The notes below the pieces were generated by a model. The model saw nothing but the letters and a program-made list of their open reading frames with translations, was not told the origin of the DNA and searched no databases. A stretch of 63,646 nucleotides of DNA, the filler included, from Chrysochromulina tobinii (Eukaryota), in the NCBI GenBank assembly GCA_001275005.1. It is 8 parts of 8 records of this genome, joined end to end, with 100 filler letters (N's around TTAATTAATTAA, not from the genome) between each part and the next. Parts side by side here need not be neighbours in the genome. Positions count along the whole stretch, not along the records: positions 1 to 13,410 come from JWZX01000643.1; 7 more parts are not named here. One strand, 5' to 3'. The position numbers and the translations under genes were made by a program. Below are positions 331 to 60,929 of this stretch, in pieces (position 1 is the first letter of the stretch; each line of letters starts with the position of its first letter).

Positions 331-2065
331 GGCCAGGGTGGCGAACAGGGCGGAGGCTCGCCTTTCGACATGTTCTTTGGCGGCGGGCAGCGCAAAGACA
401 CCGGCCGTGGCAAGAATATGGACATCGAGCTGCCAGTGACCCTCGAAGACTTGTATGCGCGCGCCCATGGCCTCCGCTTGATTACGCTTGATTACGCTTG
501 ATTACGCTTGATTATGCTTGTGTAATGCTTGATTACGCTTGATTACGCTTGTATGCGCGCGCTCATGGCCTCGGATGGGCTCTGATTGCCTCTTGATGGC
601 CTCTGATGGCCTCTCGATTGCCTCCCTCATCAGGTACAATGGCAATGAGAAGCTCTGATTGCCTCTTGATTGCATTTGATGACCTGATGATTGCCTCCCT
701 CATCAGGTACAATGGCAATGAGAAGCTCGCGACGGTCAAGCGGCGCATCGTTTGCCGCAACTGCAAGGGCAAGGCCCACCTGCCGCGATGTGCTGAGTGC
801 GGTGCCTGCCCGAAAGAAAAGAAGATGGTACATCGGCGTGCGGGGCCTGGGATGGTGGTGCAGCAAGAGGTGCGTGCGCCGCTCAGGGCCGTTGATGACC
901 TCTAATGAGCCCTGATGAGCTCTGATGAGCTCTGATGAGCTCTGATGAGCTCTGATTGCCTCCCTCATCAGGTGCGTGCGCCGCTCAGGGCCGTTGATGA
1001 CCTCTAATGAGCCCTGATGAGCTCTGATGAGCTCTGATGAGCTCTGATTGCCTCCCTCATCAGGTGCCTCGCTCATCCAGTGTCGTTGATGACCTCTTGA
1101 GTGCCTTTGAGTGCTTCTGATTCCTGTCTATGGCAGGTCTGATGATTGAGCCGAAGGAGAAGTGATTGGCCTTGATTGCACTTGATTGCGCTGAATTGCG
1201 CTGGATTGCGCTTGATTGGCCTTGATTGCGCTTGATTGGGCTTGATTGGCAACCGTACGTTCGCCCCTTTTATGGCAGGTGATGGTCGAGTCGAAGGAGA
1301 AATGCAAGCGTGAAGACAAGCGACTCACAGCGACCATCGAGAAGGGTATGCCCTGATGAGCCCTGATGACCTCTAATGACCACTGATGACCACTGATGAC
1401 CATCGAGAAGGGTATGCCCGATGCGGAGGAGATCGTCTTCAAGTACGAGTCCGAGCATGAAAACGCTCACGACGGCGCCTCCGCTTCCCCCCCCCCCACA
1501 GGTATGCCTGATGCGGAGGAGATCGTCTTCAAGTACGAGTCCGAGCAGAAACCGGGCCAGATCCCGGGAGACGTGGTGCTCAAGCTCAAGACGACGCCCC
1601 ACCCGATGTTCACACGCTCCCGCGACTCGTTGTCGATGAAGATCGCCATCCCGCTGCGCGCGGCACTGCTGGGCTTCGAGACCTCGTTCAAGCACCTGGA
1701 TGGGCACACGGTCACGCTCAAGCGAACGACCGTGACCAAGCCGGGGCAGGTGGGCAACACGCTGATGACGACTGATGACGCGCCCTGATGACGACTGATG
1801 ACGCCCTGATGACCTCCTGATGACGCCCTGATGACCTCCTGATGACGCCCTGATGACGACTGATGACGCCCTGACGATGTCCTGGCAGGTGATCCGCATC
1901 AAGGGCGAGGGGATGCCTAAGCACGGCACGCCGTCAGAGTTCGGCGATCTGACCATCACCTTCTCAGTCGACTTCCCCACTACCGTCGAGGCGGCCCTCG
2001 CCCAGGGGCTTGAGAAGCTCCTCCCCACATTCAGCGCCTCCGACCTGCGCATCCTCAGCAGCTGA
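331..2065 (+). CDS. DnaJ/Hsp40 co-chaperone (DNAJA/DNAJB11-like), 5'-partial; exons approx 331-452, 707-869, 1279-1345, 1502-1749, 1889-2065
   Basis: Spliced exons read PFDMFFGGG..LPVTLEDL|YNG..CRNCKG..CAECGAC..TIEKG|MPD..PGDVV..HPMFTR..ALLGF..HLDG..IKGEGMP..GDLTITFSVDFP, the Hsp40 G/F, Cys-rich and C-terminal motifs. All joins are GT-AG and in frame. Confidence 0.9.
689..706 (+). promoter_or_regulatory. Recurrent 3' splice-site cassette A, GATTGCCTCCCTCATCAG (representative copy)
   Basis: Exact or near copies ending at 633, 706, 971, 1063, 40595, 58258, 60253 (+) and 6423, 6539, 6585, 6631, 7788, 7847, 15943, 20856, 21022 (-, approx). Confidence 0.85.
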
Positions 2066-3137
2066 GCGCGCCGTGTTGGGCGACCTGCGCATCCTCAGCA
2101 GCTGAGCGCGCGCCGTGTTGGGCGCATGCCGTCAGCTCGCAGGGCGGCGCCGGCCTGGGCGCGCCGTGCTGGGCATCCCTACTTCGAGACGTACGCGCCG
2201 CGACGGGCGCAGCTATAGGCCGCGGCGCTGGGCAGCGTGAACAAACTGGGCAGCGTGAACAAGGCGCCGACCGGCATGTGACGGGGCATGTGACCTTGAG
2301 ACATGTATGGTCGGGTCAGTGCTACATAGTGGGTCGCTGGGCCGCGCCGTCGCGGGCGTTATGCGTGGCTCACTGGCCGGTGGCTCTCGTGTGAGTCGTC
2401 AGCCCTACATCGCCCAACACGGCGCGCGCCCATCGGTCGCCCTCGGCCGTGCATCGTTGCTCAACTTGTGTCCCCCCGCCGGACCGGTTCGCGGTCGTCG
2501 GGGGGTGGGGGTTACGGGTGTGCGCACTTATACGTTACCGCGAATACAAGCCGAGCGGCCGGCCCCGGGGGATCGGGCTTGATGCGGCTTCGGCCTTCGG
2601 GGGTTATATGCGTCGCTCCGGCGTCTAGATCTCGCGCATCGTACGATTTGCCGTCCGCACACGCGCTGCTGTAAACGTAACACACCTCCACAGCTCGCAA
2701 CCGCCCGGCGCAGCCAACGCCTTTACGAGTACGCGACGGACCGCCGCGTGCGCGCCGCGCCCGCCGCACCGAACAAGCGCCGCCGCACGAGGGCCGAGAG
2801 CCGGGGGGCGCCGAGGCGCGCGGGACGGGCCCTTATCCACACTGACCACTCTCACGACATGCCAGTCGGCGGCTCGGCGCCTGGTGGTTCACACCTGGTG
2901 GTTCACAGGAACATAGCTGCCAAAGCATGCATCGGACACGGCAGTCCGCGTTCATGCCGAAATAGGCAAGAGGAACGGCGCATTCACAGTCCTCACGCGC
3001 CTTCATGCCAGGACGAGCTCGGAGAGGTCGATAGGTACGTATCTCGGACGTATCTCGGACGTATCTCGGGGAATTGGCTCCGCCGCCCCAATGGCGCCGT
3101 CGCGGGCGTCGTCGCGGGCGCCATCGCGGCGAGGCGC

Positions 3138-4955
3138 TCAGCCGAGGGGGACGGCGGCCGCGGCCTCATCAGGGGAGATGAACTCTTCAGCTTCGTCAGT
3201 CTTGTACAAGATCTCGAGCACCTGGGCGCGCGAGAGTGGCGCGCGAGAGTAGCGCGCGAGAGTGGCGTCATCGGTGGTGTCATCAGTGGTGTCATCGGTG
3301 GTGTCATCAGTGGTGTCATCAGCGGCACCTTGTCAAGGAAGGGGATCTGCGCCCCCTCGTAATCAATCTCGTAATCAATCTCGTAATCAATCGTAATCAA
3401 TCGTAATCAAGCGGCACCTTGTCAAGGAAGGGGATCTGCGCCCCCTCGTAATCAATCTCGTAATCAATCTCGTAATCAATCTCGTAATCAATCGTAATCA
3501 ATCGTAATCAATCGTAATCCATCGTAATCAATCGTAATCAAGCGGCACCTTGTCAAGGAAGGGGATCTGCTCCCCCTCGTGGCTCTGGCAGAGCACCTCG
3601 ACCTCGCGCAGCTTCGAGTAGTAAAAGTCACGCTGCGCGCGCACCGAGGCCAACATGACGACACTCAGTCGCACTCCGCGCGGCGCTCAGTTTCGTCAGT
3701 CGCACTCCGCGTGACGCTCAGTTTCGTCAGTCGCACTCCGCGTGACGCTCAGTTTCGTCGATCTCGCGAGGGCCATCAGGCGGCCAGCAGTGCGCCATCT
3801 CGCGCTCGAGATTCTCCGTTGCGTAATCAGTGATGTAATCAGTGGCGCCATCACACCTCGCGCTCGAGATTCTCGACGCTCATCTTGAGCTCCGTGACCT
3901 CGAGGGCGAGCTGCTTCGCGCCGCCCTGAGCGCCCGCACCGGCGCTCGACGCCGCACTGGGCACCTCCGACGCTGCCCGCGCAGACGAGGCCGGCATGCG
4001 CTTGGGCGCCTCCTTGGGCGCCGCCGTGGGCGCGGCGGGCGGCGGCTTGGGCGGCGGGGCCTCCTTAGGGGGCGCTGCCTTTTTAGGGACGGGAGGCGCC
4101 GTAGTGGCGGCAGGCTCGTTGGCCGCCTGGTCGGCGAGCGGCGCCGCTGTACCCTCGGGGGCCACGACGGCGCCGTTGGGTGCATGCATATCCCAGTAGC
4201 ACTTCATAAACTGAGAGGCACCCGGACGCGAAGGCGAGCGCCGTGGTGAGCGAGGTGAGAGGCATGCATGCAGGGGGCACGCCTCAGGGCGCCGTGGGCT
4301 GTGACGCCGTGTTGGGCAGTCGCGCCGTGTTGGGCAGGTCGGGCACTGGCGCCGTGTTGGGCAGTATCGCGCCCACGGCGGCGCCGCGGGGGCAGCGTGC
4401 AGTCGCGGGGTGCCCACGGCGGCGCCGCGGGGCCAGCGTGCAGTCGCGGGTCGCTGGCGTCCGAAGAGGTGCTCGGCGGGCGTGCCTGCACAAATTCCAT
4501 GTTGGTCTGGAAGGACTTTTTGGAGAGTTTGTCGATCTCAATGAACCGGTCGATCTTCTTCTGGCTGAACGCTTTCTGGAGCTGCTTGAAGTTGTTGATG
4601 TAGTCGACCTCGATCTTCGCGTCGCGCTTCACCTTGGCCATGACTTTGCATTCCGGGTAGATGGAGTCGATGATCTGGCAGTAGACGACGCCCGAGCCGA
4701 GGTCCTCAATTTTCTGGAAGCTCGGCTGGAAGTGCTGCTGGATCCACCCGATCAACTCCTTGCGCCCCACGAAGTAACCCTCGTGCATCTGCCATCGCCG
4801 CACGAGGCGGACGCACGCACGAGAGCATGGACGCGCGCCCGCTCAGCACGCTGGGACGCGGTGCGCGCGGCTGCGCGCATAGGCGCTGCGGACGCGCGAG
4901 GGCGATAGGCTCCGAGGGGCGGCGAGGGTCAACCCACCATGCCCATCGCCGCCAT
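3138..4955 (-). CDS. EB1: Microtubule end-binding protein EB1/MAPRE; exons 4955-4938, 4788-4486, 4210-3857, 3632-3549, 3221-3138
   Basis: MAAMGM|MHEGYFVGRKELIGWI..IEDLGSGVVYCQIID (CH domain) and ENLERE|RDFYYSKLREVEVLCQ..VLEILYKTDE (EBH domain). Confidence 0.93.
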
Positions 4956-5361: not shown

Positions 5362-6853
5362 TCAGCAGTCATAATACCCCTTGCTGCTGCTCTCCTCCTC
5401 GTCCCCCGCGGTCGCCGCCCCCCTCCTCGCCGGGGACGGCGCCCATGTCACACTCCGGTCCGTGCGCTCGGTGCGCTCGCCACAGCGCTCGGTGCGCTCG
5501 CCACAACGCGCGCTCGATGGGCGTGGCGTGCGCGTTGTGGCGAGCACCGAGTGCGTGTTCTCTAGCGCGCGGTACGTGCGAGCGACCCGCGCAGACGCGC
5601 TCCCGCCCCCCTCCCAGCCCGCGCCCCCCTCCCAGCCCCGCCCCCCTCCAGCCCCGCCCCCCTCAGCCCCGCCGCTGCCGCCCGCTTGGAAGGCGTCGAC
5701 TAGTTGGACCAGTGACGAAGCGCGCACTCGGTCGCGCATCTCGCGTGCCTCCGCATGCCTCTCGCGTAGCAGCGCCTCGCGACGCTGGTCGATCGCGCCC
5801 GCGGCGGCGCGCAGCGTGCTCGCGCCAACGCGCCTTGAGTGACTGAGGAAGGCTCGTGCCTGCTTCGTCGAGATCGCAATCTCGCTCACCTGAGGGAGGG
5901 ACGCACTCAAGTGTCATCAAGCGCAATCAGTCTGAGGAGGGACGCCATCGATCTGAGGAGGGACGCAATCAATCTGAGGAGGGATGCAATCAAGGGCCAC
6001 AAAGATCGCAATCTCGCTCACCTCCGAGCCCGAGCTCGCAATCTCGCAATCAGATCGCAATCTCGCTCACCTCGTCATGGAGCGCCTCCACGTGGCCCAT
6101 CCAACGCGCATCCCTCAGCCGCTTATCCGCCTTCCGCGCGGCCGCCTCGCGCTTGACGCCGCGCGCGCGCAGCTGGTTCAGTTTCGTCACCCGCTGCCGC
6201 TCCTGCTGCGCCAACGCCCGTTGCGACCAGGCGGCCCTCTGCAGGTCCGCGCCGTGCCGAGCGTGCTCGGCGCGCTGGGCGGCGAGGGCCTGCTCGCGCC
6301 GCACCTGTGGGGAAGGGCGAGGCGCCGTGGTGATCACTTGCATGCAAGGCACGTCATCAGTGGTAATCAGCGAGGGCCTGCTCGCGCCCGCACGTCCTCG
6401 AGGGTCATCAAGCGCAATCAATCTGATGAGGGACGCAATCAAGGGGCCACTGAGCTCGCAATCTCGCGCCGCACGTCCTCGAGCCTCGAATGCCAATACT
6501 CGGCGCGCTTGGACGCATGGAGCAGCCATCGATCATACCTGATGAGGGAGGCCATCAGAGGCGTCATTCGAGGCCATCCGGTTCCTGATGAGGGAGGCCA
6601 TCAGAGGCGTCATTCGAGGCCATCCGGTTCCTGATGAGGGAGGCCATCAGAGGCGTCATTCGAGGCGTCCTTCGAGGCAATTCGACGTACTCAGCGAGGA
6701 GCGTGCTGTCCGTGTCGAGGGCGTCAATAGGGCCACCATTCTGCTCAAGCGACGTGACCTTGCCCACGTCCTCGAGGCTGCGACATCCCTTCGCCGCGGC
6801 CAAGATGAGCCAGGACGGTGGCTCGCCGAAGCTGAAACCGCCACCCGCCGGCA

Positions 6854-13410: not shown

Positions 13411-13510
13411 NNNNNNNNNNNNNNNNNNNNNNNNNNNNNNNNNNNNNNNNNNNNTTAATTAATTAANNNNNNNNNNNNNNNNNNNNNNNNNNNNNNNNNN
13501 NNNNNNNNNN
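13411..13510. other. Artificial contig linker N-TTAATTAATTAA-N (also 22790-22889, 31967-32066, 35141-35240, 43971-44070, 56997-57096, 60830-60929)
   Basis: Seven 100-nt N blocks, each with the same six-frame-stop palindrome at the centre. Confidence 0.98.
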
Positions 13511-20747: not shown

Positions 20748-22647
20748 TCAGTGGCGCACTGTCTCCCGCAGCGTCGCCACTGCCCTGGCCTCGAGCTCGC
20801 CGGCGTCGGCAGCTGAAACGCCCCGCCGTGCGAGCTCCTCGAGGAAGCGCCCCACCTGATGAGGCAGGCAATCAGTGGAAATCAGTGGCAATCAGTGGCA
20901 ATCGAATCTCCTCGAGGAAGCACCCCACCTCCTCCTCACGCACGCCGTTGACGCCATACGCGGAGGGCTCGAGGGCCGCCGCCGAGTGGTAGAGCAGCGC
21001 GGCCTCGCGCGAGGCGACCACCTGATGAGGGAGATCATCTGTTTTAATCTCGCGCGAGGTGATCACCTTGGGTTTGGCGAGGCACTCTTAATCAGTGGCC
21101 ATCCAGTCGCACTCAGTCGCACTCAGTCGCACTCAGTTGTAATCTCGCGCGAGGTGACCACCTTGGGCTCGGCGCGATTGCCCATCTCGCGCTCGAAACG
21201 GCCGAGCGCCGTACCGAGCGCCGAGAGCCGCCGGTCCGCGCTCGCGTCGTAGCGGGCACTCGCGTCGTCATGGGCATCGCGCGCGTCCTCTCGGGCGTCT
21301 GGAGGCTCGGCAGCGTCCGCAAGCAGTGCCGCCGCCACGCACTTGGCCATCAGGCATGCGTCTACGAGGGTCTGATTCGCGCCCTGACCCTTGAACGGGG
21401 TCATTGCATGCGCGGCATCGCCCAGCAAGGTGACACGTGAGTGCCACGCGCTGGCGGCGCCCGCAACGGCGCCCTCGCCCGCAACGGCGCCCTTGCTCGC
21501 CACAGACGTTTTACGGCGCAGCGGCAGCGCGGGACGATCGAGCAGCGGCGTTCCCCAGACGGAGGAGGCGAGCGTCTCTTCGAGCATCTGCGGCACTGGC
21601 GCGTGCCAGTGCTTGCATCTCGCCTTCATCTCGGCGAGCAGCGCCGCGCCGCCCGCCCGACACAGCGCGCGCGCGGCTTCGGCGTCCTCGGCACGGAAGG
21701 AGAGTTGCCACATGGTCGTATGCGGCGGCCCCTCGTCCGCAAATAAAGGCGGTTGGCTCGTTTTTGGCGGTTGATTGCCAAGAGGGGCCTGGGCGGCGAC
21801 CTCAGCCGCGGGCGCCGTGTCGGGCACCGACTCGGTGGTGGAGGCTCGCTTCAGAGCCGCCGCGTCGTCGGTCGCGTCGCCCGGCCCCTTGGCATCCTCT
21901 AGCGGCTCGTATGGCATCGTGAACAGGCGGTGGGTGCCATCGACGGTGTAGAAGCCCTGCCGATGAAGGAGAGGATGCTGCGTGGTCGAAAGCCCGAGCA
22001 CGACGACGACGCCGACCTCGCGCAGAGCATCACCCACCTTCTGGGCGCGCACGGCGGAGCGCACGCCGTCCGCGCCAATGAGCACGCTGCCGTACGCCAC
22101 GTGCAGCTCGGGCGGCTGCGGCTCTGGCTCCGGTGGCGGTAGTGGCCGATCGTGCGCACGCTCGCCGGCCGCGCGGTCCCACTCTCTCGAGGTGCACGGC
22201 GACGCGCCGCTTCGCGGGCTGCTCTTCGTACCGGCGGAGCCGCCAGCCCCAGCGCACCGTTCCCGGCGCGAGCCGCTCATACAGCAGCTGGCGCAGCGTG
22301 TGGCGCGGCACCCGGAAGTTGCGGCCGTCGCCCGGCTTACCACTGAAGCAGATGCCAAAGTATCCAAGCACACGCCCATCCGCGGCGAACACCCAATGAC
22401 AGTTAGAGGAGGCTTGCATGTCAGTGGCTCTGATGGCATGTGTGAGCCCGAGCGACGCGAGCGCTGTGCTGCACGTCGGGCCGAGCGTGAGACCATAGCC
22501 ACGGCGAGCAACCTCCCAGCTCTCGTCCCGTTCATACACCAGGCATCGAACGCCGCGGTCTTGCAGCGCCACAGCGACAGCTAAGCCGCCAATGCCACCA
22601 CCGATGATGATTGCCTCGGCGTCACAGCTTTCCTGGGCCGCAACCAT
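20748..22647 (-). CDS. FAD-dependent monooxygenase (FAD_binding_3 type); introns 21161-21022 and 20928-20856; frame change near 22130-22185
   Basis: IIIGGGIGGLAVAVAL..VYERD, LIGADGVRSAVR and VTLLGDAAHAMTPFKGQGANQTLVDA fingerprints. Confidence 0.9.
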
Positions 22648-22943
22648 CCCGCGCTGATGCCGTCGGCGCAGGGGCGGTCACGGCTTGGCGGTGTGTGAGC
22701 TCGCTGCTGCTGCTGTGAAACACACACGCGCACAACCTCCGGACCCCCAAGCACGAGGGCCTCTATCGCTATGGACGGAGGTGTGGCCGNNNNNNNNNNN
22801 NNNNNNNNNNNNNNNNNNNNNNNNNNNNNNNNNTTAATTAATTAANNNNNNNNNNNNNNNNNNNNNNNNNNNNNNNNNNNNNNNNNNNNCCCCTCCCCCC
22901 ACCCACCCACCGCTCCTCCCCCCTCCCGATGCTCCTACTGCAG

Positions 22944-26494: not shown

Positions 26495-26853
26495 CATTTA
26501 ACTGCGATGGACGGTTGCGGATTCAGACGAACCATAGTCGATCCAGGGCGAGCGTCAGACGCGGCGCGCGTCGGCGCTGGTGCACGCGCAGCTTCCGGCA
26601 CCGAGCAGCCGCGAACAGACCGATGGACTTTGATGGAGCATGTCAAGTGAGGTTGACTCTTGAGCGACTTTTGAGTTGAGTGAGGGGAGGCTGATGCGGC
26701 ATACGTGCTTTGTTGTTTTCTTCCGAGGTCCGCGTTTAAGGCTTGTAACGACGTAACGAAACTTGTAAGTTTCAAGTTTGGTTGGGCTGCATCTCGGTGC
26801 AACCCTGCGTTCAGCGTGCACGTTCAGCGCTGCAGCTCGGGCGCCACTCCCCA

Positions 26854-29800
26854 ATGCCGGGCTGCTGTTCAGTTTGCTGCACGCTCCTACGCCGCAAGGA
26901 GGCGCTCCTCAAGGCGAATCGCTGCTGCTCGAGCGTCTTCGAGATCCTGATCCCCATCTTCCTCAGCGCCATCGTGCTGGTCGGCGCCCTCGTCTCTGAG
27001 ATCGAAATGTTCCCGACCGAGCTGTTTGTGCCCGATAACTCAACGATCGCATTTCGGGATCTTCAGGGGCTACTTCCTGACATGACCTTCAATAGCTTCA
27101 CGAGCTTCGCGAGCTTGCCAACCTTTGTGCCGCCGCTTCCTCTCTTTCTCGCGTACAATGCCATGTTCACCTCTGCATTCCCCAAGCCCACCGAGTGGGT
27201 CGATGGTTTCAATCCATACGACGGCTCGTACTTGGCGGTGGCTCCGGACACGCCGGAGGTGCGCGCCTTTGTTCAGAGCGTCGTGAGCCCCGCGCCGCGT
27301 GGGTGGATGATCGACCCGACGAATATGGTTGGCGCTTCGGTCCACGCCTCGCTCAAACACGTCAGCATGATCACCAACAGGGACTTCAACATTTCCAACT
27401 TTGGCCATCAGCCGCTTGAGGTGCGCTACCTGCCGAGCGACGAGGCGCTTGAGGTCCTTGCGCGTGCACGGGGGGCCATCTGGGCGGGCCTCGTCTTCAC
27501 CAGCATCCCGGTCGACGGCGTCGGCACCTGGGAATACAAGCTGCGGTACAACGCCTCTTTGCTTCCGCAAGCCAACAGCAGGTTTGATAGGTTCCCGGGA
27601 CAGGGTACGAGCAGCGCGCTCTCGAAGCAGTTTTTCCAATACTACCGCAGCGGCTTCCTCTCACTGCAGGCCGCGATCAACGAGCGCATCCTCCTCATCA
27701 ACACGCGCGTCAACTCGACCATATCGGCGGTCGAAGATGACGTGCTGCCGTATGGCATGCCCTTCCCCGTGCTGGAGAACAAGCTCAACAGCTTCTTCGC
27801 GTTCGCGGGCAACTTGGTCGGCCTCGTGTGCGTCCTCGCTTACCTGATTCCAGTCTCGACCACTTTGCGCACGCTCGTCCTCGAAAAGGAATCGAAGCTG
27901 CGCGAGCAGCTGCTCATGATGGGCGTCACCCTGCCCGCCTACTACGGCTCCGTGCTCACGACGTTTGGCGCGTCCTTCGCCATCATCGCGGCCATCAGCG
28001 GCGTGATCATCTCGATCGGTTGCTTCACGCACTCCTCGCCTGGCATCGTGGCCATCCTCTTCATCCTGTTTGCACTCGCGTCGCTTGCGTTCACCCTCGC
28101 TATCTCGTCGCTCTTCCGCAACTCGCGCGTCGCGGCGCTCGCGGGGCCTCTCATCTTCTTCCTCACCGCGCAGTTCTACAACGTCTTCCTCGAGCGTGGT
28201 GAGCTGCAGGAGGGGATGAATGGCGCCAAGGCGCTCACCTCGCTCTTCCCCGCCATGGGCTTCTATCTGGGCGCCTCTCTCATGGCCAAGTACGAGGGCA
28301 CCCAAATCGGGATCACAGCCTCGAACTTTGCCACGGCAGGCGGCGGCTTCTCCGTCGCGAACTCGATCGCGATCCTCTTCTTCGACATCTGGCTCTGGCT
28401 CTTCATCGCGTGGTACCTCGACCAGGTCATGCCCTCCGACTACGGCCTCCAGCAACGCCCGTGGTTCCTTTGCTCGCCCTCCTACTGGTGCGGAGACAAG
28501 AACGAGCCACTTGCTCTGCGCGCTCTCATCGCCAACGATGCGAACCGGCCGCTCGCCGTCGAGCCGATAGATGAGCCGATGGGCGCGAGGGGCGTGGTAG
28601 TGCAGGGACTTCGGAAGGTGTGGCCGCCGCGCCGCGTCGCTGTCGAGTCGTTGGATATGGAGATGCGATCTGGGCAGATTACGTCCCTCCTTGGCGCCAA
28701 CGGCGCGGGCAAGACCACGACGATCTCGATGCTGACTGGCCTGATGCCGCCAACGTCGGGCAACGCGACGATTGACGGCCTGAGCATCACGTCGCACATG
28801 GCCACGATCCGCTACTCGCTCGGCGTCTGCCCGCAGCAAAATGTCCTCTTCGACCAGCTGACCCCTGTGCAGCACCTGAGCCTCTACGGTGCCATCAAGG
28901 GGCTCGAGGGCGCGGCTCTGCGGGAGACGATCGACCTTCTGATCAGCAAGGTGATGCTGAGCGAACGCAAGGACGTACAGGCCAGAAATCTGTCGGGCGG
29001 CCAGAAGCGCAAGCTGTGCCTTGCAATCTCGCTCATCGGCGGCGCGAAGACGATCTTCCTCGATGAGCCGACGAGCGGCATGGACCCGCACTCGCGACGC
29101 TCGATCTGGGCGCTGCTGCGCGAGCAGCGCGAGGGACGTACGATCGTGCTCACGACGCACTTCCTCGACGAAGCCGAGATCCTCTCCGATCGCATCGCCA
29201 TCATGGCCGAGGGCAAGCTCAAGTGCGTCGGCTCCCCCTTATTCCTCAAGGAGCACCTGGGCACCGGCTACGCTCTTACCATCACCAAGACGATGGTCGC
29301 TGCCTCGGCCAAGTTTGATAAAGAGATGTTGCTCACGTTTGTGAAGAAGCACGTGCCGCTTGCGACGCTCCAAAGCGAGACGAAGCGCGAGGCGAGCGTG
29401 CGCCTGCCGGGCGACAAGCTCTCGATGTTCCAATCGCTCTTCGAGGAGCTCGACAAAAACTTCCGCCAGCTGGGCATCGATGACTATGGCGCCACGTGCA
29501 CCACCCTCGAGGACGTCTTCCTCAAGATCAACGAGAATGCGCTCCAGCGGCTCGAGGACCAAAAGGAATCGCACAACGATGCGAATCTCCAAAAGGCGCA
29601 CAACGATGCTCGGCTCGAGATCCCACCTCCCAAAGGCGAGCTGATGAAGGGCGCCAAGTCGTCTCCGGACAGCCGCGCGGCACCCCAGGTTTTGGCCCCT
29701 ATGTCCCAGACTGGGGCCACCATGCACGTGTACAGCGGCCTCGTCGCTAAGCGCCGGATCGCCGCGCGCCGTGACTGCTACACGACGTGCTGCATGATCT

Positions 29801-31966
29801 GCTTCCCCGTGTCGCTCGTCATCGGCGCGCTCGCGCTGCTGGGCGTCGCGGGCAGGATCACCGCCATCCCCGACCCAGTTGCCCTGCTCCCCGACCCGCT
29901 CTTCCCGAACGGCTTTGGCGGAGACATCCCGCGGCCGGTGCCGCTCACCGTGCCCAAGGGCAACCTCGCCGAGACTCTGCTTCCACAGCTGGCCGAGGGC
30001 GTCTGCCGGAAGAAAGGTTGCGGATGGATGGGCCTCCAATATCGTGCCAACTCGACTCGGAACGGATTCCTTGAGGTGACGCAGGAGATGGAGGCCTATG
30101 TGCTCGCAAACCCGAGCGAGGCGCGGCCGGCGGCGATGGCATGGAGCCCCGGCGTGCGCATCCCCCCTGCGCCCACTTCCTATAAGGACGTGGGGCCGTA
30201 TTGCGGCGACGCGTATTGCGCCTCCCTCAGTTCCGGCGACGCATATTGCGCCTCCCTCAGCACGCCGGGCCCGTGCCCAGCGACTAGCAACAGCAGCGTG
30301 AGTGTCGTGACTCTTATGCACAACGCAACCAACTGGCACTCGATGCCGATCCTGATCAATACGCTCTACGACGCGCTGCTCCTGCAAGCGACGGGCGGCG
30401 CGAGCACGATCACGGGGTACACCCAGGACCTGCCGCTCGATGACGCGAGCAAGGCGTACATCGACTCGTTCATCGCCGTCTTTGCCGCCATCCTCATCAT
30501 GGTGCCATATTCCTTTGTGGGGGCGACGTTTGTGACGCCCCTCGTCCGTGAGAAGGAATCGGGCTCGAAGGAGATGCAGTTCATCTGCGGCGTTGGCACG
30601 GTGACCTACTGGTTCGCATCATGGACGTGGGACCTGTGCATGTATCTGATCATCGAGCTCGCATCCTTCATCGTCTTCATCATCTTCAATCGCGAGGAGT
30701 TCATCGGCACACCCGAGGCGTTCTGGGGCACCATCTTGATCCTCCTGGGCTTTGGCTGGTCGGTGCTCGGGCTGTCGTCGATGGTCTCCTTCTACTTCAA
30801 GACGCCCTCGAATGCGCTGATCGTGATGATCGCCTTCCACTTTCTGACCGGCTTCGGCATGGTCGTGGCCGACTTTATCCTAGCGAACATCGAATCGACC
30901 AAGGAGATCATCAAAGGCCTGCGCCACTTTTTCCGCATCTTCCCGGCCTATTGTCTCGGCCAAGGGTTCGTGACGCTCGCGACCCGCAAGTCGACCAAAG
31001 CGATCAGCGCCCTCATCCCGGGGCTTCCTTCGATTCCAACGCCTGGGCTGTATGAATGGGACCAGCTTGGCGCGATCATCTTTTACCTCTTCGTCACCGG
31101 CCTCATCTTTGGCCTGGCGACCCTCGGGTTCCAGTACGGCAGCTCGTACGTCGCCCTGCGCCAGCGCATGTCCGTTTCGGGAGGGCTCGCCGCCGCGACG
31201 GGTTCCACAAGCACCACCGAGCAGAGCGCCCTCGAGGATGATTCGGTCATCGAGGAGCGCCGGCGTGTGGACGCCGGCGACACGAAGGACTCGATGCTCG
31301 TGCTCAGCCACATGCGCAAGGTCTTCACGGGCGTCTCCGTCAACCGGAAGACGACCCAAAAGATCGCTGTGCGCGACCTCTCGCTGCGCATCGACGCGGG
31401 AGAGTGCTTCGGCTTCCTCGGCGTCAACGGCGCCGGCAAGTCGACAACCTTCTCGATGCTCACGGGCACGCTCGTGCCGACCTCGGGCGATGCGACTCTC
31501 AACGGCATGTCGATCCTGTCCGAGCAAGAGAAGATCCGCCGGCTCGTGGGCTACTGCTCGCAGCACGATACGCTCGAGCACCTGCTCACCGCGCGCGAGA
31601 CGCTCCGCATGTACGCAAGGATCAAGAAGGTAGATCCCGCCATCATTGAGTTCGAGGTCGACCAGCTCATCAAGGATCTCGATCTCGGCAAGTTTGCGGA
31701 CAAGCCCGCGGGCACGTACTCGGGCGGCAACAAGCGCAAGCTCTGCGTCGGCATCTCGTTGATTGGCAACCCGCAGCTCGTGCTGCTCGACGAGCCTTCG
31801 TCGGGCATGGACGCGGCGTCCAAGCGCTTCCTGTGGACACTGATCAAGCGGCGCACGGCGCAGGTCTGCACAGTCCTAACGACCCATTCGATGGAGGAGT
31901 GTGAGGCGCTCTGCGGCCGCATCGGCGTGATGGTCGACGGCACCCTCCGCTGCCTCGGCCCCATTC
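26854..31966 (+). CDS. ABC transporter subfamily A (full transporter), 3'-truncated by gap, intronless
   Basis: Two TMD-NBD halves: LGANGAGKTTT/LSGGQKRKL/LDEPTSGMD and LGVNGAGKSTT/YSGGNKRKL/LDEPSSGMD; EKESKLRE, TTLEDVFL. Confidence 0.96.
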
Positions 31967-32086
31967 NNNNNNNNNNNNNNNNNNNNNNNNNNNNNNNNNN
32001 NNNNNNNNNNTTAATTAATTAANNNNNNNNNNNNNNNNNNNNNNNNNNNNNNNNNNNNNNNNNNNNTCGCCACCGCCACCTTCTCC

Positions 32087-35140: not shown

Positions 35141-35240
35141 NNNNNNNNNNNNNNNNNNNNNNNNNNNNNNNNNNNNNNNNNNNNTTAATTAATTAANNNN
35201 NNNNNNNNNNNNNNNNNNNNNNNNNNNNNNNNNNNNNNNN

Positions 35241-40500: not shown

Positions 40501-42125
40501 CAGTGGCCGCCATCGGCTACATGTGAGCCTCGATAGCCTCGATGGCTGATTGCCACTTCTTGCCACTGATGACCTCTGATTGCCTCCCTCATCAGGTGAG
40601 CCTCGATGGCCTCGAGTGAGGAGGCCTTGCATGCAAGTGCTCACCACGGCGCGCCCCTTCCCCACAGGTGAGCCTCGATGGCCTCGAGGTACTCCGGTCA
40701 CCCGTGCACCTCCGTGTGAGTGCGGCGCCGCCCGACGTGGCGCGCTTCCAACTGACGGGCGAAGGGCTCCAGGCAGCCAACGCTGGCGAGCCCGTGCGTC
40801 TGTGCATACGCTGCTTCGACGCGTTTGGCAACCGGCTGCGGCCGCCGCACGGCTTGCCACTATCGCAGACGAACGCCGTGTTCGGCATCGCCATCGTCGA
40901 CAGCGGCAAGGGCAGCAGCGGCAGCGGCAGCAGCGGCAGCGGCAGCGGCAATAAGGGGCGAGCAGCAGCCAAGGCGAACGGTCTGACGAAGCTCCCGCGA
41001 GAGTCTCAAGAGCTCGTCAATCTGCCGGAGTTTCGTCAGGAGTTTCGTCAGGAGCAGCAGCAGCAGCAGCAGCAGCAGCTCGTTCCGCGCCAGCCGCACG
41101 TACCCCTGCGAGCAGGGCACTGCGGTGTCCTAGCCGGCCTCCGCCTCGGCTTCGACTCGATCATAGAGTCGATGCCCTTTGAGGGCAGTTGGCTTGAGGC
41201 GGACGAGTACAGCCTCGCATTGGTCGCCGAGCGCGCGGGAGATTTTGAGCTGCACGTGTGGGTCGAGCTCACGGGCCGGGGAGGTGGGCGCGCCGCACGC
41301 GAGCAGTTGCCAGGCTCGCCGCTCGCGCTGAACGTGCAGCCCTGCCGCCCTAGCGCGGCCACATCGATCATTTGCGCGCCCGAGCCGCTCAAGTCGGGAA
41401 CGCTCACGATGGCCGCGGGTCCCGCCGACATCAGCTTCCGTGTGCAGCTCCGCGACGAGTACGGGAACACGACCCCCGCTAATGAGAGAGCGCTGAAGGC
41501 ACTGGGCATCGTCGCGCACGCGCCCGACGCTGAGCGTCCTCTGTCGGTCACGCGCGTCTCGGACGCCCTCGGAGAGTGCTTGGTGTCCTACCAACCTGCT
41601 CTGTACCCGATGCTCGTGGGCGAATACCGGATCGCCATCATGCTCGGGCACGAGATCCTCGGCGAGTCGCCACTCGTCTTCGCGGTCACGCCTGGCCCAG
41701 CGGACGCCCCGAACTGCGTCATCAGCATGCCCAGCCGTGCGCCCATCTACGATCCGTACTCGAATAACCGACCCTTCAGTGCGACGCTGACGGCGTTCGA
41801 CCAGTTTGGAAACCGGCTGTGCAGGGGCGGTGCAAACGTCATGGCGCGCGTGCAGCAGGTGGAGAGAAACGGCGAGACGACGGGCGTTCCATTATCGGCG
41901 AATGTGGAGGACTGCAAGGACGGCGAATACCGCTTCACCTTCACCTGGCATCGTGTGAGCTTGGTGCTGCTGCAGGTGCGCATCGAGAACAGTGATCTCG
42001 AACCGCAGCACGTCGAATTCTTCGACCCACTCGCGCAGATGGCGCAGAGGGCGAGGGCCAAGTCACCGCCACCAGAGCAGGAGGAGAGCGACGGGGACGG
42101 TAGAGGCGAGGAATCAGAGGGTTGA
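37565..42125 (+). CDS. Filamin/ABP280 Ig-repeat protein with IQ motifs; intron 40523-40667
   Basis: FTIVARDAFD..GGDPFVV..DTGDGRYAVEF..GTYSVCVSLHGAKVAGSP and further copies; IQSIFRG and IQACARG motifs. Confidence 0.85.
40629..40667 (+). promoter_or_regulatory. Recurrent branch/acceptor cassette B, GCATGCAAGTGCTCACCACGGCGC-Yn-CCCCACAG (representative copy)
   Basis: Copies near 1455, 40629, 55244/55304/55364, 55847, 57397, 57923, 58922 (+) and 4240, 6305, 6944, 7455, 7530 (-). Confidence 0.85.
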
Positions 42126-43970: not shown

Positions 43971-44070
43971 NNNNNNNNNNNNNNNNNNNNNNNNNNNNNN
44001 NNNNNNNNNNNNNNTTAATTAATTAANNNNNNNNNNNNNNNNNNNNNNNNNNNNNNNNNNNNNNNNNNNN

Positions 44071-53706: not shown

Positions 53707-55686
53707 CGGCGGCAGCGGCAGCAGCGGCAGCGGCGGCAGCAGCTGTACGACACCCGCGCGGAAAGGGCCGCTGCGCCTGTACGTGCTGGTCGGCCTCTCC
53801 CTCGCCGCGGGTACGGGGCTGGGCAAGGTCGCGTACCGGTACGTGAACTACGCGACGGGTACGGTGCTCAAGTCGATGAAGCTGCTGCCCGTGATGGCCG
53901 TCTCCGTTTGCTGGCTCCATCGGAGCTACACGAGGCTCCAGGTGGCTGCGGCCGTGCTGATGGTCGGCTCGGCCGTGTGCTTTGGGCTGGGCGAGGCGGA
54001 GCTCGAGCCGAGCTTCCATCCGCTAGGCTTGCTGCTCTCGTTTGGGTGCCTGGTCGCTCAGGTGACGAATCTGATGACCTCTGATGACCTCTGATGACCT
54101 CTGATGACCTCTGATGACCTCTGATGACCTCTGACGACCTCTGATGACCTCTGACGACCTCTGATGACCTCTGATGACCTCTGATGACCTCTGATGACCT
54201 CTGATGACCTCTGATGACCTCTGATGGTCGCTCAACAGTGATGAATCACCTCCGGATGCTCAGCACGTGATTGCCAATTGTTTGGCCACGTGATTGCCAC
54301 GTGATTGCGCATTCTGAGTGCCATAAACGTCAATTGGGTTGAGTCTCGATGATTGCCTCTGATGACCTCTGATGCCATCGATTGAGCCTCGTTGATGACC
54401 TCGGATGGCGCAGGCGCTCTGATGACCTCTGTTGACCTCTGATGATCGTTGATGACCTCTGATGGCGCAGGCGCTCCAGAACAACACGTCTGACCGGCTG
54501 CTGCGCGACTACGGTGTGAACGTTCACGAGGCGATGGCTTGGTCGAACGGTGTGGGCGCCGTCGCGGTGCTCTTTGTCACGCTATGGACGGGCGAACTGT
54601 GGAGGGCACTTGCCTATTTTGGAAACACCGGCCTCGGCTCGGCGCTGCTGCTACTGCGCTCGCTCCTCTTTTATGTGGGGGCTTTGCTCTACACGATACT
54701 CATCAGGTGAGTGACCTCGGAGTGACCTCGGAGTGACCTCGGAGTGACCTCGGAGTGACCTCGGAGTGACCTCGGAGTGACCTCGGAGTGACCTCGGAGT
54801 GACCTCGGAGGGCCATCTGAGTGACCTCTGCCGTCGACTCACTGACTGTATGCGGTGTGAATGTGAATGTGAATGCCCTCTGCCGTCGACTCACTGACTG
54901 TATGCGGTGTGAATGTGAATGCCCTCTGCCGTCGACTCACTGACTGTATGCGGTGTGAATTCACAGTGAGAGTGGGGCCGTCACCGCCGTCTTCGTGACG
55001 ACGATGAGGAAAGCGCTCACGGTGGCGCTCTCATTCCTCATCTTCCCCAAGCCATGGTGATGACCTCTGATGGCTGCTGATGACCCTTGATGGCCAATGA
55101 TGGCCAATGAATTGTCACTGATGGTCGCCGATTTCCACTGACGTCGCAGGTGCTCAAAATACTCTCTTGGGCTACTGCTGCTGCTGGCGGCCATCGTGTG
55201 CGAGGTGCGCCCCTCTCCGCTCCTCTCAGCTTGCAACGGCTCGCATGCAAGCGCCCATCACGGCGCGGCACGCCCCTCTCCGCTCCTCTCAGCTTGCAAC
55301 GGCTCGCATGCAAGCGCCCATCACGGCGCGACACGCCCCTCTCCGCTCCTCTCAGCTTGCAACGGCTCGCATGCAAGTGCCCATCACGGCGCGTCGCCTC
55401 CCCTCTCCTCCCGTCACAGGCGCGCGGCAAGCCAGCCAAGGACCATCAGCGCTCGCCGCCGCCCACCAGTGAGCATGCACGCGCTCCATATGGCGCGGTG
55501 TGCGGCGGCGCAGACGACAGCCCAGGCGCCGAGCTGGGCGCCGAGCTGCGCGGGCTGGGCGCCGTGCTGGGCGCGAGCAGCGGCGGGATGCGCGCCCGGG
55601 AGGGCGCCCGGGATGTTGCCTCTCCGGAGCCCAAGGATGATGACCACGACGGCGCGGGCGAGGAGCAGCCGCTCGTGCGCCCGTGA
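53459..55686 (+). CDS. Nucleotide-sugar/PAPS transporter (SLC35B/UAA family); exons 53459-54061, 54471-54706, 54967-55056, 55151-55204, 55420-55686
   Basis: YRYVNYATGTVLKSMKLLPVM, FHPLGLLL, GAVTAVFVTTMRKALTVALSFLIFPKP; all joins in frame. Confidence 0.9.
54071..54226 (+). repeat. Intronic decamer array (CTGATGACCT)n; an 11-mer array (GAGTGACCTCG)n follows at 54709-54809
   Basis: Direct tandem repeats. Confidence 0.95.
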
Positions 55687-56996: not shown

Positions 56997-57294
56997 NNNN
57001 NNNNNNNNNNNNNNNNNNNNNNNNNNNNNNNNNNNNNNNNTTAATTAATTAANNNNNNNNNNNNNNNNNNNNNNNNNNNNNNNNNNNNNNNNNNNNCGCC
57101 GCCCTCGCCGCCGCCACCCCCCTCACCGCCGCCCCTCTCGCCGCCACCGCCGCCATCGTCGCCGTCACCGCCGCCGCCGCGACCGCCCCTGCCCTCGCCA
57201 CCGCCGTGACCGCCGCCATCACCGCCACCGCTGCCGCCGCCACCGCTGCCGCCGCCACCGCCGCCACCGCTATCGCCTTTGATGCCTCCCGTCC

Positions 57295-60200
57295 TTTTGT
57301 GACGACAAGCACCTCAAGTACATGGGCTGGCAGCTGTCCGACATCCAGTCGGCCGCGGTGCGCTTCGTGTGTACATGGCAGGCGAGTGCGCGGCGCGCAT
57401 GCAAGTGCTCATCACGGCGCCCCCTCTCCCCGCTGCACCCTGCAGGTGCGCCTCGCGTCGTTGCAGGCGCTCGGGCTCGTGTACGAGGCCTTTGACGAGA
57501 TCAAGGATCTGACGCCCATTCGCCACTTCACCGAGCGCTTCGAAACGCGGCTGCTATCGATGTTCAAGGACGTCGATGACAGTGTCGCTGTCGAGGCCAT
57601 CCGTCTCGTCACCCGGCTGCAGGCATGCCATCGCCCTGAGCGTTTCTGATTGCGCCTGTCGGTACCTGAACCACCTGTCAATACGATTGCAGGTGCTCCG
57701 CCTCCTCCAGACCTTTTGATTGCATCTGATTGCCCCTCTAATTGCCTCTGAGTGCACTCTGATCACAGGAGCTCGGCCTCCTCAAGTCCTTCGCATCGAC
57801 GAAGCGGGCGGCGCTCCATCTCATGTGCCAGCGCGACGTGCAGCCGAAGCTCTGGACGGCCCTCGGACCCCTCATCCAGCTCCACCTCAAGGTACGTTGA
57901 TTGCATGCGGAGGACCTGCCTTGCATGCAAGTGCTCACCACAGCGCTCTCGCCTCCCAACCCCACCTCAAGGACGACTCGCCCACGGCAACCAAAGGCGG
58001 CGCCGAGGCCGGTGCAAGCGGCAGCGCGGCAGCGGCAGGTGGTGGCGGCGCGATGGCGGACGGCGATGAGGGCGGCGGCGGCGGCGGCGGCGGCGGGGGC
58101 CCGACCTCGCCAAGTAAAGCGCAGCGGCAGCACCTCGCCACCGGCTCCGTCGCCCGGCTCGCCAAGTCCCCTCTCGTGCAGCTCGCATCGCTCCTACTCG
58201 CCGATCGGCAGGTAGCTCTGATGATCTCTGATTGCATGCTGATTGCCTCCCTCATTAGTGCAGCTCGCGTCGCTCCTACTCGCCGATCGGCAGGCGCACC
58301 AAATTCGGGTCGCGGACACGGAGGAGGTGGAGCCGGCGCTGGCGGACGAGGAGAAGGAGGCGAAGGAGGAGGCGGAGCTGGGTGTGCGCTGTGGGCAGTT
58401 GGTGCGCGCGATGGCGCCCATCGAGCCCGCGCTCACCAACTGGGCGGCGTACGTTGAGGTGCGATCACCTGCCTCTGATGGCCAGACTGATGATTCCGGA
58501 TGGACAGCTGATGGATGACCCCTGAGTGCCATCTGAGTGCCGTCTGAGTGCGTCTGAGTGCGCCCCTACCCTCAGGTGCTTACCACCGACGACGAAGATC
58601 TCGACCCATCCATCGAGGCGACGCTGCCCGTGATCCTTCAGCTGATGCATGCCGCCGCGATTGAGACGAACGGCCGCTTCGACGCCGCCGCCGCCGCGGA
58701 GCTCGACGAGCATGACGAGGACGAGGAGGAGGAAGACGACGACGGCGACGTGGACGACGTGGTAGGCGGGCGAGGACGTAAGAGTCGCAAGCGCAAGCAG
58801 CGCAAGGCGATCGCGGCTGTGGAAAAGACGTCGACGGCCCTCTCCACCCACCTGGCGAAGGCGATGGCGCAACTGCTCCAGCGGTTCGGTACGCATGCAG
58901 GACCGCTGCGCGCCGTACTCTGCATGCAAGTGCTTACTACGGCGCCCACCCCCCTCTCCCCACAGGTACGCATGCAAGGCCGTTGCGCACCGTGCTCGCG
59001 CTCGTGCAGCAGATGCGCCTCGCGTCCGCCCAGGCGACGCTGAAGGACAAGGCGTTCGAGAAGATACTCTCGGAGCTCGAAGACGTGACGACCAAGTACG
59101 CTGATGGCCTCTGATGGCTTCTGATGACCACCTGATGGCCCTCTGATGACCACCTGATGACCACCTGATGACCACCTGATGACCACCTGATGACCACCTG
59201 ATGACCACCTGATGACCACCTGATGACGCCATATGACGCCATATGACGCCTGATGACGGCTGATTACATTCGGAAGTGAATGTCTCGTTGATCAGGCACA
59301 CCGACCGGGCGACGCTCGAGGCTTGCGGCGAAGCATGGTCCGCGCTCCTGGCCCAGCCCGGGGCGCCCGCGCTGCAAGAGAAGGTGCAACGTCGATTCGA
59401 CAAGCTCGTCGAACGCCTCCTTCTCCAGCTCAAGACGCTCAAGACGGCGCTCAAGAAGCCGAGCTCGGCCCAGGGAGATCCGCCGAGATTCGGGCTCGTG
59501 TCGGAGGCGCTCGTGACGCTCCACCGGCTCGAGAGCCTCACCAAGGGCCAACGGCAGCCGCTGCCTGGCCTCTCGGGCCTGCTGGGTGGGCTGCTGCAGG
59601 TGAGGGCCGCTGATTGCATCGGATGACCTCTGATTGCCACTGATTACCTCTGATGGGCACTCGGGCCTGCTTGGTGGGCTGCTGCAGGTGAGGGTCGATG
59701 GATTGCCACCGAGTGCCGCTGAGTGCCGCTGCCCTGCCAAGGATAGCCATGGATGGCCACTGACGGCCATCTCCTCTGTTGCAGATGGCGCAGACCAAGG
59801 ACCTCTTCGGGGCCGTGGACACGTACATGAGCCACCAACACGACATTGAAGCCATCCTTCGGGGGGACTCGATGGGCGCTGGAGCAGCGGCATCGAGCGG
59901 CGCGGCTGCCAAGGGAGGCAAGAGCGGCAGCGGCAAGGGCCGCGGCGGCGGCAAGGGCCGCGGCGGCAGCAAAGGCGGCGGCGGCAAGGGCGGCGGCGGC
60001 AAGGGCCCCTCGTCGCCCACAACGGCGCGTCACATAGCCGAGCTCGAGGCGCATGCGCCCACGACGGCGCTCGCGGGCCGGCTGGCCGGCTGCGTGTGCT
60101 CGCTGTTCCGGCTGCAGCTGGCGCAGCTCGTGCTGCGCGTCGAGGCGTTGGTCGTCGCTAAGAGTGACGACGAGACAGCTGTGCGCGAGCTGCTGATGAC

Positions 60201-60829: not shown

Positions 60830-60929
60830 NNNNNNNNNNNNNNNNNNNNNNNNNNNNNNNNNNNNNNNNNNNNTTAATTAATTAANNNNNNNNNNNNNNN
60901 NNNNNNNNNNNNNNNNNNNNNNNNNNNNN

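Follow-up and report, generated by a model that had tools for sequence, protein, structure and literature searches.

How does an intron come to contain an intact copy of the exon–exon junction that its own removal creates? This question is raised by intron 5 of a gene coding for a DnaJ/Hsp40-type chaperone in the haptophyte alga Chrysochromulina tobinii. The gene lies in a stretch of 63,646 nucleotides (assembly GCA_001275005.1, parts of eight records joined end to end), which we call the window and to which all positions refer. A preliminary description of this DNA had noted that the intron at 1346..1501 holds its own spliced junction, lying between an array of CTGATGA repeats and a recurrent intron end named cassette B, and had read this copy as a fossil of the uninterrupted gene. 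We suggest that the intron is young and that the 60-base junction copy is the leftover of two nested insertions which duplicated their targets and involved templated repair of staggered breaks. On the evidence below we consider this origin probable.

The window is eukaryotic DNA with a GC content of 59–70%, and the region 331–2065 (+) represents the larger part of the chaperone gene. The closest named relatives over the exon used as query are both haptophytes, Coccolithus braarudii with 82% and Chrysotila carterae with 77% identity. By mapping the ∼400-residue open reading frame (ORF) of a relative with tblastn on the metagenome contig L001, which is identical to the window across 4249 bases, the gene was divided into seven exons and six introns. 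Exon 5 (1279..1345, +) is defined by this mapping and by RNA contig pieces covering 1277–1344 in three RNA runs, and it ends with ...ATIEK and the first base of a glycine codon. Exon 6 (1502..1749, +) encodes the DnaJ C-terminal domain and is supported by RNA contigs, by tblastn and by precomputed PF01556 matches in relatives; RNA contig pieces cover 1501–1752 with no letters differing from the window. Between the two exons lies intron 5 (1346..1501, +), which has 156 bases, is bordered by GT..AG, interrupts the reading frame in phase 1 and has a length that is a multiple of three. Contigs of all three RNA runs join 1344/1345 to 1501/1502 and skip these 156 bases, eight bases being placeable on either side of the joint. 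In addition, the protein P0001 from a public collection (330 amino acids, 100% identical over the query exon) is continuous across the junction (...ATIEKGMPDAEEIVFKYESEQ...), and the joint 1345/1502 is absent from all contigs of the DNA run. The stretch 1346–1501 is a real intron, and the RNA joint together with the GT..AG ends confirms the borders that had been proposed for it.

The region of this intron can be resolved into five consecutive segments: a first copy A of 22 bases, an array of 44 bases, a second copy B of 60 bases, a 3′ cassette of 44 bases and a third copy C of 47 bases. Copy A (1332..1353, +) consists of 14 bases of exon 5 and the first eight bases of the intron and contains the donor which is in use according to the RNA joint. 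It is followed by insert 1 (1354..1397, +), 44 bases of 10-base CTGATGA-type units within a repeat stretch that spans 1353–1401. Copy B (1398..1457, +), the fossil junction, comprises 60 bases, namely the last 14 bases of exon 5 and the first 46 bases of exon 6 without interruption, and it contains an unused duplicate donor at 1412. Next to it lies insert 2, or cassette B (1458..1501, +, 44 bases), which as a member of its family begins already at 1455 and thus overlaps with the end of copy B by three bases; it carries a putative branch site CTCAC, a pyrimidine run and the CAG acceptor that is used in the RNA. Copy C (1501/1502..1547, +) is the working start of exon 6 and the downstream copy of the 46–47-base duplication. 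Both the array (1353–1401) and the cassette (1455–1501) could therefore be located on the two sides of the junction copy, as the preliminary description had it.

Two pairs of direct repeats hold this layout together. The stretch 1332–1353 is identical to 1398–1419 in all 22 bases at a spacing of 66, and 1411–1457 agrees with 1501–1547 in 46 of 47 bases at a spacing of 90. The sole mismatch between copy B and exon 6 is C1419 versus T1509, which is synonymous (CCC in copy B, CCT in copy C). A chance origin of copy B is excluded, since its 60 bases are also found identically in a separate genomic record (L002, see below) and since anchored matches of this length occurred in none of 300 random windows. 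At the junctions the inserts and copies share a few bases, three at the start of the cassette and five between the array and copy B, as judged from the one empty site at hand. In fact the last array units of insert 1 already hold the first five bases of copy B, which suggests that slippage may have taken place at this junction. The layout as a whole is likely to represent two nested insertions, each of them accompanied by a flanking copy of its own target.

If copy B is a record of the gene before the intron was gained, then alleles without the intron should resemble it. Public metagenome contigs were scanned with the exon-6 peptide, which gave 44 loci, and 39 of these were examined around the site of the intron. 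The most informative locus is L002, a separate record which is 99.4% identical to the window over 1045–1358 and 94.8% over 1501–3390. Its global alignment to the window has 2956 matches, 65 mismatches (∼2% of the aligned bases) and 19 indels, and one of these indels corresponds exactly to the 156 bases of intron 5. Still present in L002 are intron 6 in full and the 3′ part of intron 4, as well as the intergenic region and the arrays in the introns of the convergent neighboring gene. As the neighboring introns and the intergenic region are present, L002 appears to be genomic DNA that is devoid of just one intron. Its uninterrupted stretch 288–347 is identical to copy B in 60 of 60 bases, including the CCC where the working exon has CCT.

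The same uninterrupted reading ...EKG|MPD... is found in 34 of the 39 loci (L002–L034 and L036), many of which are probably transcripts; L001 contains the intron. Five of the read-through loci (L019, L020, L029, L030 and L034) contain, as part of longer contigs, an ORF that runs without a break for about 400 codons or more, and two distant homologues, L038 and L039, also read through the site. The proline codon in question is CCC in 21 of the 34 loci, CCG in five, CCT in four and CCA in two, and in the remaining two the codon is GCC. Thus L002, the read-through loci and the predominance of CCC all indicate that the intron-less state is ancestral. Judged from these alignments, the filled allele is derived and very young, and copy B appears to keep the sequence from before the insertion, the working exon having changed from C to T only later. 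The proposal that the copy is a fossil of the uninterrupted gene is supported by L002, and using intron-less relatives to polarize CCC and CCT, as had been recommended, gave CCC as the older codon. The preliminary description had also considered a template of complementary DNA (cDNA). Such a template is unnecessary and also less likely, since the messenger RNA (mRNA) of the strain has CCT at the position where the copy has CCC.

Two of the loci, L035 and L037, have an intron near the site. We considered whether it was the same event and rejected this, as it lies at a different position 15 bases downstream and has no target copy. These introns (1104–1217 in L035 and 2236–2501 in L037, ∼112 and ∼264 bases) are pyrimidine-rich and unrelated to intron 5, and both loci belong to distant and very GC-rich relatives (71% GC). 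When the words of the stretch are sought in the DNA runs, the runs form two groups, X1–X4 with a share of 0.89–0.90 and X5–X11 with 0.77–0.81; these groups might reflect two strains, for example, with filled and empty alleles.

The pair of alleles could in principle be read in the opposite direction, with an old intron that was lost precisely in L002, either by recombination between direct repeats or by way of a cDNA copy. The direct repeats of 22 and 47 bases would indeed favor deletion, and two slips would suffice to restore the intron-less sequence. On the contrary, the intron is absent in every more distant relative examined, both neighboring introns are retained in L002, which is contrary to cDNA-mediated loss, and L002 has CCC where the mRNA of the filled allele has CCT. 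Copy B is in addition undecayed relative to L002, and the nested layout would still have had to arise before any loss. We regard such a loss as highly improbable.

Given that copy B is preserved so well, one may also ask whether it has a function, either as an alternative exon or as a splicing decoy under selection. Translation shows that a frame entered in copy B stays open across the cassette as far as exon 6 and that the 90-base unit is free of stops and in frame, and the donor of copy B is identical to the used donor over 22 bases. Nevertheless, the frame that enters copy B from exon 5 through copy A meets TGA TGA within insert 1, the copy is dispensable in the sister allele, and the RNA depth is zero over the bins 1420–1491 in all three RNA runs, in which the adjoining exons are covered, with the proviso that contigs may miss rare isoforms. 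RNA depth over this part hence leaves the earlier fossil reading standing, which had hinged on 1398–1457 not being exonic. Folding of the RNA from 1326 to 1521 did not reveal a significant structure that hides the inner donor (z = −1.52; 14 of 200 shuffled sequences fold as well). At present the donor at 1346 and the acceptor at 1501 are used in the RNA and no role was detected for the fossil copy, and a selected function of it has in our view hardly any probability.

How could the nested structure have been formed? We suggest that a 44-base 3′ cassette would first have been copied into the exon just past ...GAGCA together with a duplication of 46–47 bases of the target. This duplication happens to start with GT; the upstream copy would thereby have supplied the donor and the cassette the acceptor, and excision of the target copy plus the cassette (90 bases) would have restored the frame exactly. 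Poor splicing of such a first-stage intron would have been tolerable, since it is a multiple of three and free of stops. In a second step, 22 bases across the new exon–intron border would have been duplicated with the 44-base CTGATGA array placed between the two copies. The first donor and the 14 exon bases attached to it would in this way have been pushed into the interior of the intron, where they now form the fossil. That the cassette came first and the array second is indicated by the splice sites: no AG precedes the GT of copy B, and insert 1 alone could therefore not be spliced exactly; insert 2 alone makes a workable intron, whose 90 bases begin with the GT of the target copy and end with the cassette's CAG. 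As to the enzymology, the insertions may have come about by repair of staggered breaks with templated fill-in from other introns via short microhomologies and without a transposase that cuts at a fixed stagger.

The inserts themselves give a hint where the filled-in sequence came from. Twelve copies of the cassette B family could be aligned in the window, and their core consists of a CTCAC-like putative branch site, a role assigned from position and consensus only, of a pyrimidine run and of (A)CAG. The copies have conserved 3′ ends and a variable upstream extent. An 11-base motif, CACGGCGCCTC, was not enriched in the window (8 found, 5.5 expected), and the family was then defined by alignment. 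A second recurrent intron 3′ end is CCTCATCAG; extended by the following GT to CCTCATCAGGT, it occurs nine times in the window at an expectation of 0.04.

For insert 1 the probable source is closer at hand. It shares one exact string of 15 bases and one of 14 bases with intron 4 (870..1278, +; an RNA loose end at 1277 runs on into the letters of exon 4), 350–470 bases upstream and in the same orientation. Each string occurs three times in the whole window, once in insert 1 and twice in intron 4, at 894–908 and 905–918 and again at 996–1010 and 1007–1020 in the internal duplicate of that intron. Since these strings are common to insert 1 and intron 4 only, local templating would account for them better than a distant origin, and intron 4 is likely to have been the template of insert 1.

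Further structures of a similar kind are found in the introns of this gene. In intron 4 the first part is duplicated in tandem (102/92 bases), and at ∼1126–1165 there is a decayed copy of the intron's acceptor and the first ∼30 bases of exon 5. In intron 3 (453–706, +) the acceptor module and the first 22 exon bases occur twice, at 616–655 and 689–728, 73 bases apart. The upstream AG abuts a GT, and a two-step recursive removal would be possible in principle; the first of the two exon starts runs into a stop. Arrays built from TGATGA-containing units of 10 bases are frequent in introns of the window, for example, at 1353–1401, 1755–1870, 54089–54218 and 59100–59230. Because 10 is not a multiple of three, these arrays present TGA stops in all three frames within three units, and we may speculate that such stops would expose unspliced transcripts to decay.

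If the repair process is general, then its footprints should recur at other introns. For each of 37 candidate module ends in the window, the sequence behind the AG was sought again further upstream, with its first base as anchor and with mismatches tolerated, and the result was compared with 300 random windows. For 18 of the 37 none of the 300 random windows reached the anchored copy; tandem units account for nine of these 18, and the other 19 module ends gave weak matches or nothing beyond chance. The nine non-tandem target copies have lengths of 22, 46, 20, 21, 32 (with five mismatches), 18, 21, 12 and 21 bases. GT, which is required for exact splicing, stands at the start of eight of the nine; the remaining one, insert 1 of intron 5 read on the minus strand, starts with GG. 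A scan for exact 10+10-base junctions over all GT..AG pairs was abandoned in favor of these anchored scans, as it was swamped by tandem arrays and missed intron 5 through the C/T mismatch. A general survey of direct repeats (601 segments, 193 after filters) returned mostly coding repeats such as LRR, RCC1 and ARM and was used only to spot extra cases.

The closest parallel to intron 5 is a candidate intron at 6305..6474 (−), which likewise has two inserts alternating with target copies in the order copy A, insert, copy B, cassette B, copy C. Its junction copy at 6370–6402 (−) has one extra G, and its anchored target copy of 12 bases was matched in 0 of 300 random windows. A variant of the nested layout is seen in a candidate intron of a filamin-repeat gene (40523..40667, +), in which an array-type element ending with CCTCATCAG is followed by a cassette-B element. 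The 20–21 bases that start the next exon also precede each element, which gives three copies in total, and once the 145 bases are taken out, two long open frames, each with Filamin domains, become continuous in the same frame. The earlier suggestion of two rounds of duplication fits the nested order in intron 5, and in these two cases that order recurs beyond it.

Simpler forms are found as well. A candidate at 20856..20928 (−) consists of a 21-base copy of the start of the next exon, an array and CCTCATCAG (0 of 300), the first 18 bases of a candidate intron at 21022..21161 (−) copy the start of the next exon (0 of 300), and a 77-base cassette-B intron candidate at 58889..58965 (+) repeats in at least its first 17 bases the start of the next exon (0 of 300). 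The preliminary description had pointed to further junction-spanning copies on the minus strand. That at 6370–6402 is a true copy apart from the extra G; that at 21050–21073 is so only in part, as it copies the 5′ splice-site region within the intron 21022–21161 and beyond the 18 shared bases follows the intron and not exon 2. Finally, at 3321–3580 in a gene on the minus strand the last ∼30 exon bases and the first eight intron bases occur three times, separated by 10-base arrays of the type TGATTACGAT. L002 is 124 bases shorter here, which corresponds to one unit, and duplications of 5′ splice sites are therefore also polymorphic.

Some neighboring structures deserve mention. At 55230–55419 (+) three tandem cassette-B-like units follow each other with a period of 63 bases, and a different sequence stands after the last unit only. 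At 58177–58294 (+) a direct repeat of 36–37 bases surrounds an array-type element whose 3′ module ends with ...CCTCATTAG rather than with ...CCTCATCAG, and its exact removal would need a non-canonical border. The region 26749–32019 (+) holds an uninterrupted frame of 1757 codons for an ABC transporter (ABC_tran, ABC2_membrane_3) amid an intron-rich region. Runs of 44 N occur in pairs with 12 bases between them at seven places (13411–13510, 22790–22889, 31967–32066, 35141–35240, 43971–44070, 56997–57096 and 60830–60929) and represent masked or gap stretches.

Families of intron ends in unrelated genes call to mind the introners, which Huff and coworkers reportedly described in 2016 in Aureococcus and Micromonas. 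An obvious alternative is thus that intron 5 is a classical introner, that is, a short non-autonomous DNA transposon which is moved by a transposase and whose target duplication provides the GT, as in Symbiodinium, Polarella and Aureococcus. Several features are alike. The intron ends form a multi-copy family present in introns of unrelated genes, the acceptor comes from the element and the donor from the duplicated target, the mRNA is restored exactly (as shown here by the RNA joint and P0001), and the intron is present or absent among close genomes, with L002 and 33 further relatives without it. This logic matches the description of the Symbiodinium introners as far as the excerpts of the reports go (PMC9860276; bioRxiv 10.1101/2020.10.14.339549). 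In the same excerpts, the introner classes, among them classes 4/5 and 6/8/10 of Symbiodinium and Polarella, have target duplications of 3–9 bases that are fixed, and the one haptophyte case mentioned there, an introner of Chrysochromulina sp., is described with a 4-base duplication and as carrying the 5′ but not the 3′ splice site (PMC9860276).

The footprints reported here are different. The target copies range from 12 to 46 bases and vary within one family, in contrast to the fixed 3–9 bases of the excerpted classes. Terminal inverted repeats, which many but not all introner families have, are absent from the four such introns tested, which contain short internal pairs only. How far the inserts reach at their 5′ side varies, and one insert seems to be copied from a neighboring intron. 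Target copies of such different lengths, the lack of terminal inverted repeats in these four introns, insert starts that vary and short overlaps where the segments meet all disfavor a transposase that cuts at a fixed stagger, and we hold a classical introner to be quite improbable.

A variable target duplication, a constant 3′ end and a truncated 5′ end are also the marks of retroposons that lack long terminal repeats (non-LTR) and of elements like short interspersed elements (SINEs). A DNA copy of an excised intron RNA or of a SINE-like RNA ending at AG, truncated at its 5′ side and made by target-primed reverse transcription, is in fact a serious rival of break repair. It predicts the conserved 3′ ends and the variable upstream extent of the cassettes as well as duplications that differ between 12 and 46 bases within one window, and the 3-base overlap at the 5′ junction of the cassette would fit. 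Non-LTR retroelements make up ∼5% of the confidently classed introners according to an excerpt of PMC12130899. Nevertheless, neither a poly(A) nor a simple tail is found, and the cassette (...CACAG) directly abuts the target copy. Pfam scans of 35 of the 107 long ORFs listed for the window did not reveal any domain of a reverse transcriptase, an endonuclease or a transposase. The apparent copying of insert 1 from an intron only 350–470 bases away fits local repair, with the reservation that the pre-mRNA of the gene could also have served as template. Taken together, retroposition seems unlikely to us, if still worth serious consideration.

Repair of staggered double-strand breaks has been put forward for the neointrons of Daphnia pulex, including a class termed staggered-then-staggered, and the frequent internal direct repeats of these introns were read as secondary staggered breaks, possibly concurrent with intron formation, in the excerpted report (PMC4202315). 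By comparison with this account, intron 5 is alike in being a polymorphic new intron, in the recurrence of neighboring exon sequence at its opposite end (1411–1457 and 1501–1547) and in having internal direct repeats (1332–1353 and 1398–1419, with 44 bases between them). It differs in the length of the exon–intron repeats, which are given as 4–12 bases for Daphnia (PMC4202315) and are 22 and 47 bases here. In addition, the inserts of Daphnia are in this account mostly unrelated and of unknown origin, whereas here recurrent intron ends with ready-made branch, pyrimidine and AG signals have been inserted.

Another way to duplicate an exon border is the gain of an intron by tandem duplication, as Rogers is said to have proposed in 1989. 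In its present form this is known as the AGGT model, intron gain by tandem genomic duplication, and excerpts of three reports treat it (PMC3265369, PMC4974935, PMC2891723). As in this model, flanking exon sequence is repeated within the new intron, and duplicated coding sequence furnishes the donor. The excerpted model takes both splice sites from the duplicated exon and involves nothing foreign; here the acceptor, the pyrimidine tract and the putative branch site belong to a 44-base cassette which, like the 44-base array, is missing from the empty allele, and intron 5 is therefore not of this kind. For nuclear genes of haptophytes, full-text searches did not find any description of CTGATGA arrays or of intron cassettes with long duplications, and the supplements of introner surveys, which lie outside such searches, may list haptophyte families. 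As compared with these systems, intron 5 is an introner-like or break-repair gain with unusually long and variable target duplications.

Several points weigh against an origin of intron 5 by two nested insertions with staggered-break repair. Only the filled and the empty allele were found, and as there is no intermediate with a 90-base intron, two steps cannot be distinguished from one complex event. We infer the order of events and the enzymology, and the latter, which is deduced from footprints only, is the least certain part. The cassette of intron 5 differs at several positions from all other copies in the window. The other introns with long duplications are candidates recognized from their sequence; this includes the intron at 6305–6474 (−), and an RNA contig even runs unspliced across 6319–6535. 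It is conceivable, albeit unlikely, that L002 is a partly spliced RNA contig.

The last point concerns the assembly. The listed DNA contigs of run X1 cover 1240–1399 and 1428–1547 without a mismatch and do not cover 1403–1427. Such holes prove nothing, and yet they mean that the middle of copy B rests on the assemblies of the window and of L001, which may come from the same reads. One could thus suppose an assembly artefact, the intron having been filled with reads that belong to cDNA or to an allele without it. Against this, one DNA contig (1428–1547) passes from the interior of copy B through the cassette into exon 6, another one extends over copy A and the array as far as 1399, at least half of the words of the stretch are present in 15 runs, the separate contig L001 is identical over 4249 bases, and the same layout is seen at independent loci. 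An artefact of this kind is to be considered extremely improbable.

What, then, does this locus contribute? The origin of new spliceosomal introns is a long-standing question, and clean pairs of alleles from before and after an intron gain are rare. Here a single stretch of 220 bases shows the empty site, the filled site, exact splicing proven by RNA and an internal record of the intermediate. The locus thereby adds an empty-site allele, RNA proof and a nested structure that records its own history, and its footprints fall between the introner transposons and the break-repair neointrons, the two leading models. The intron is also a natural experiment on the choice of splice sites, as it has two donors which are identical over 22 bases and 66 bases apart and of which only the outer one is seen in use. 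For genome annotation it is relevant that short RNA-sequencing reads over the exon junction can align unspliced to such fossil copies and that gene predictors may call them as exons.

The footprints further suggest that existing introns can seed new ones, and the same repair process, if it acts on one gene after another, would create, extend and reshuffle the introns of this alga. Tentatively, and as a possibility rather than an expectation, this may be taken further for this haptophyte: its introns might breed introns without a transposase, 3′ cassettes and CTGATGA arrays being copied into staggered breaks via microhomologies of a few bases and with target duplications of 12–47 bases. A duplication that starts with GT would make an instant intron, later hits would bury donors as fossil junctions, and the flanking repeats would render the process reversible and polymorphic in natural populations.

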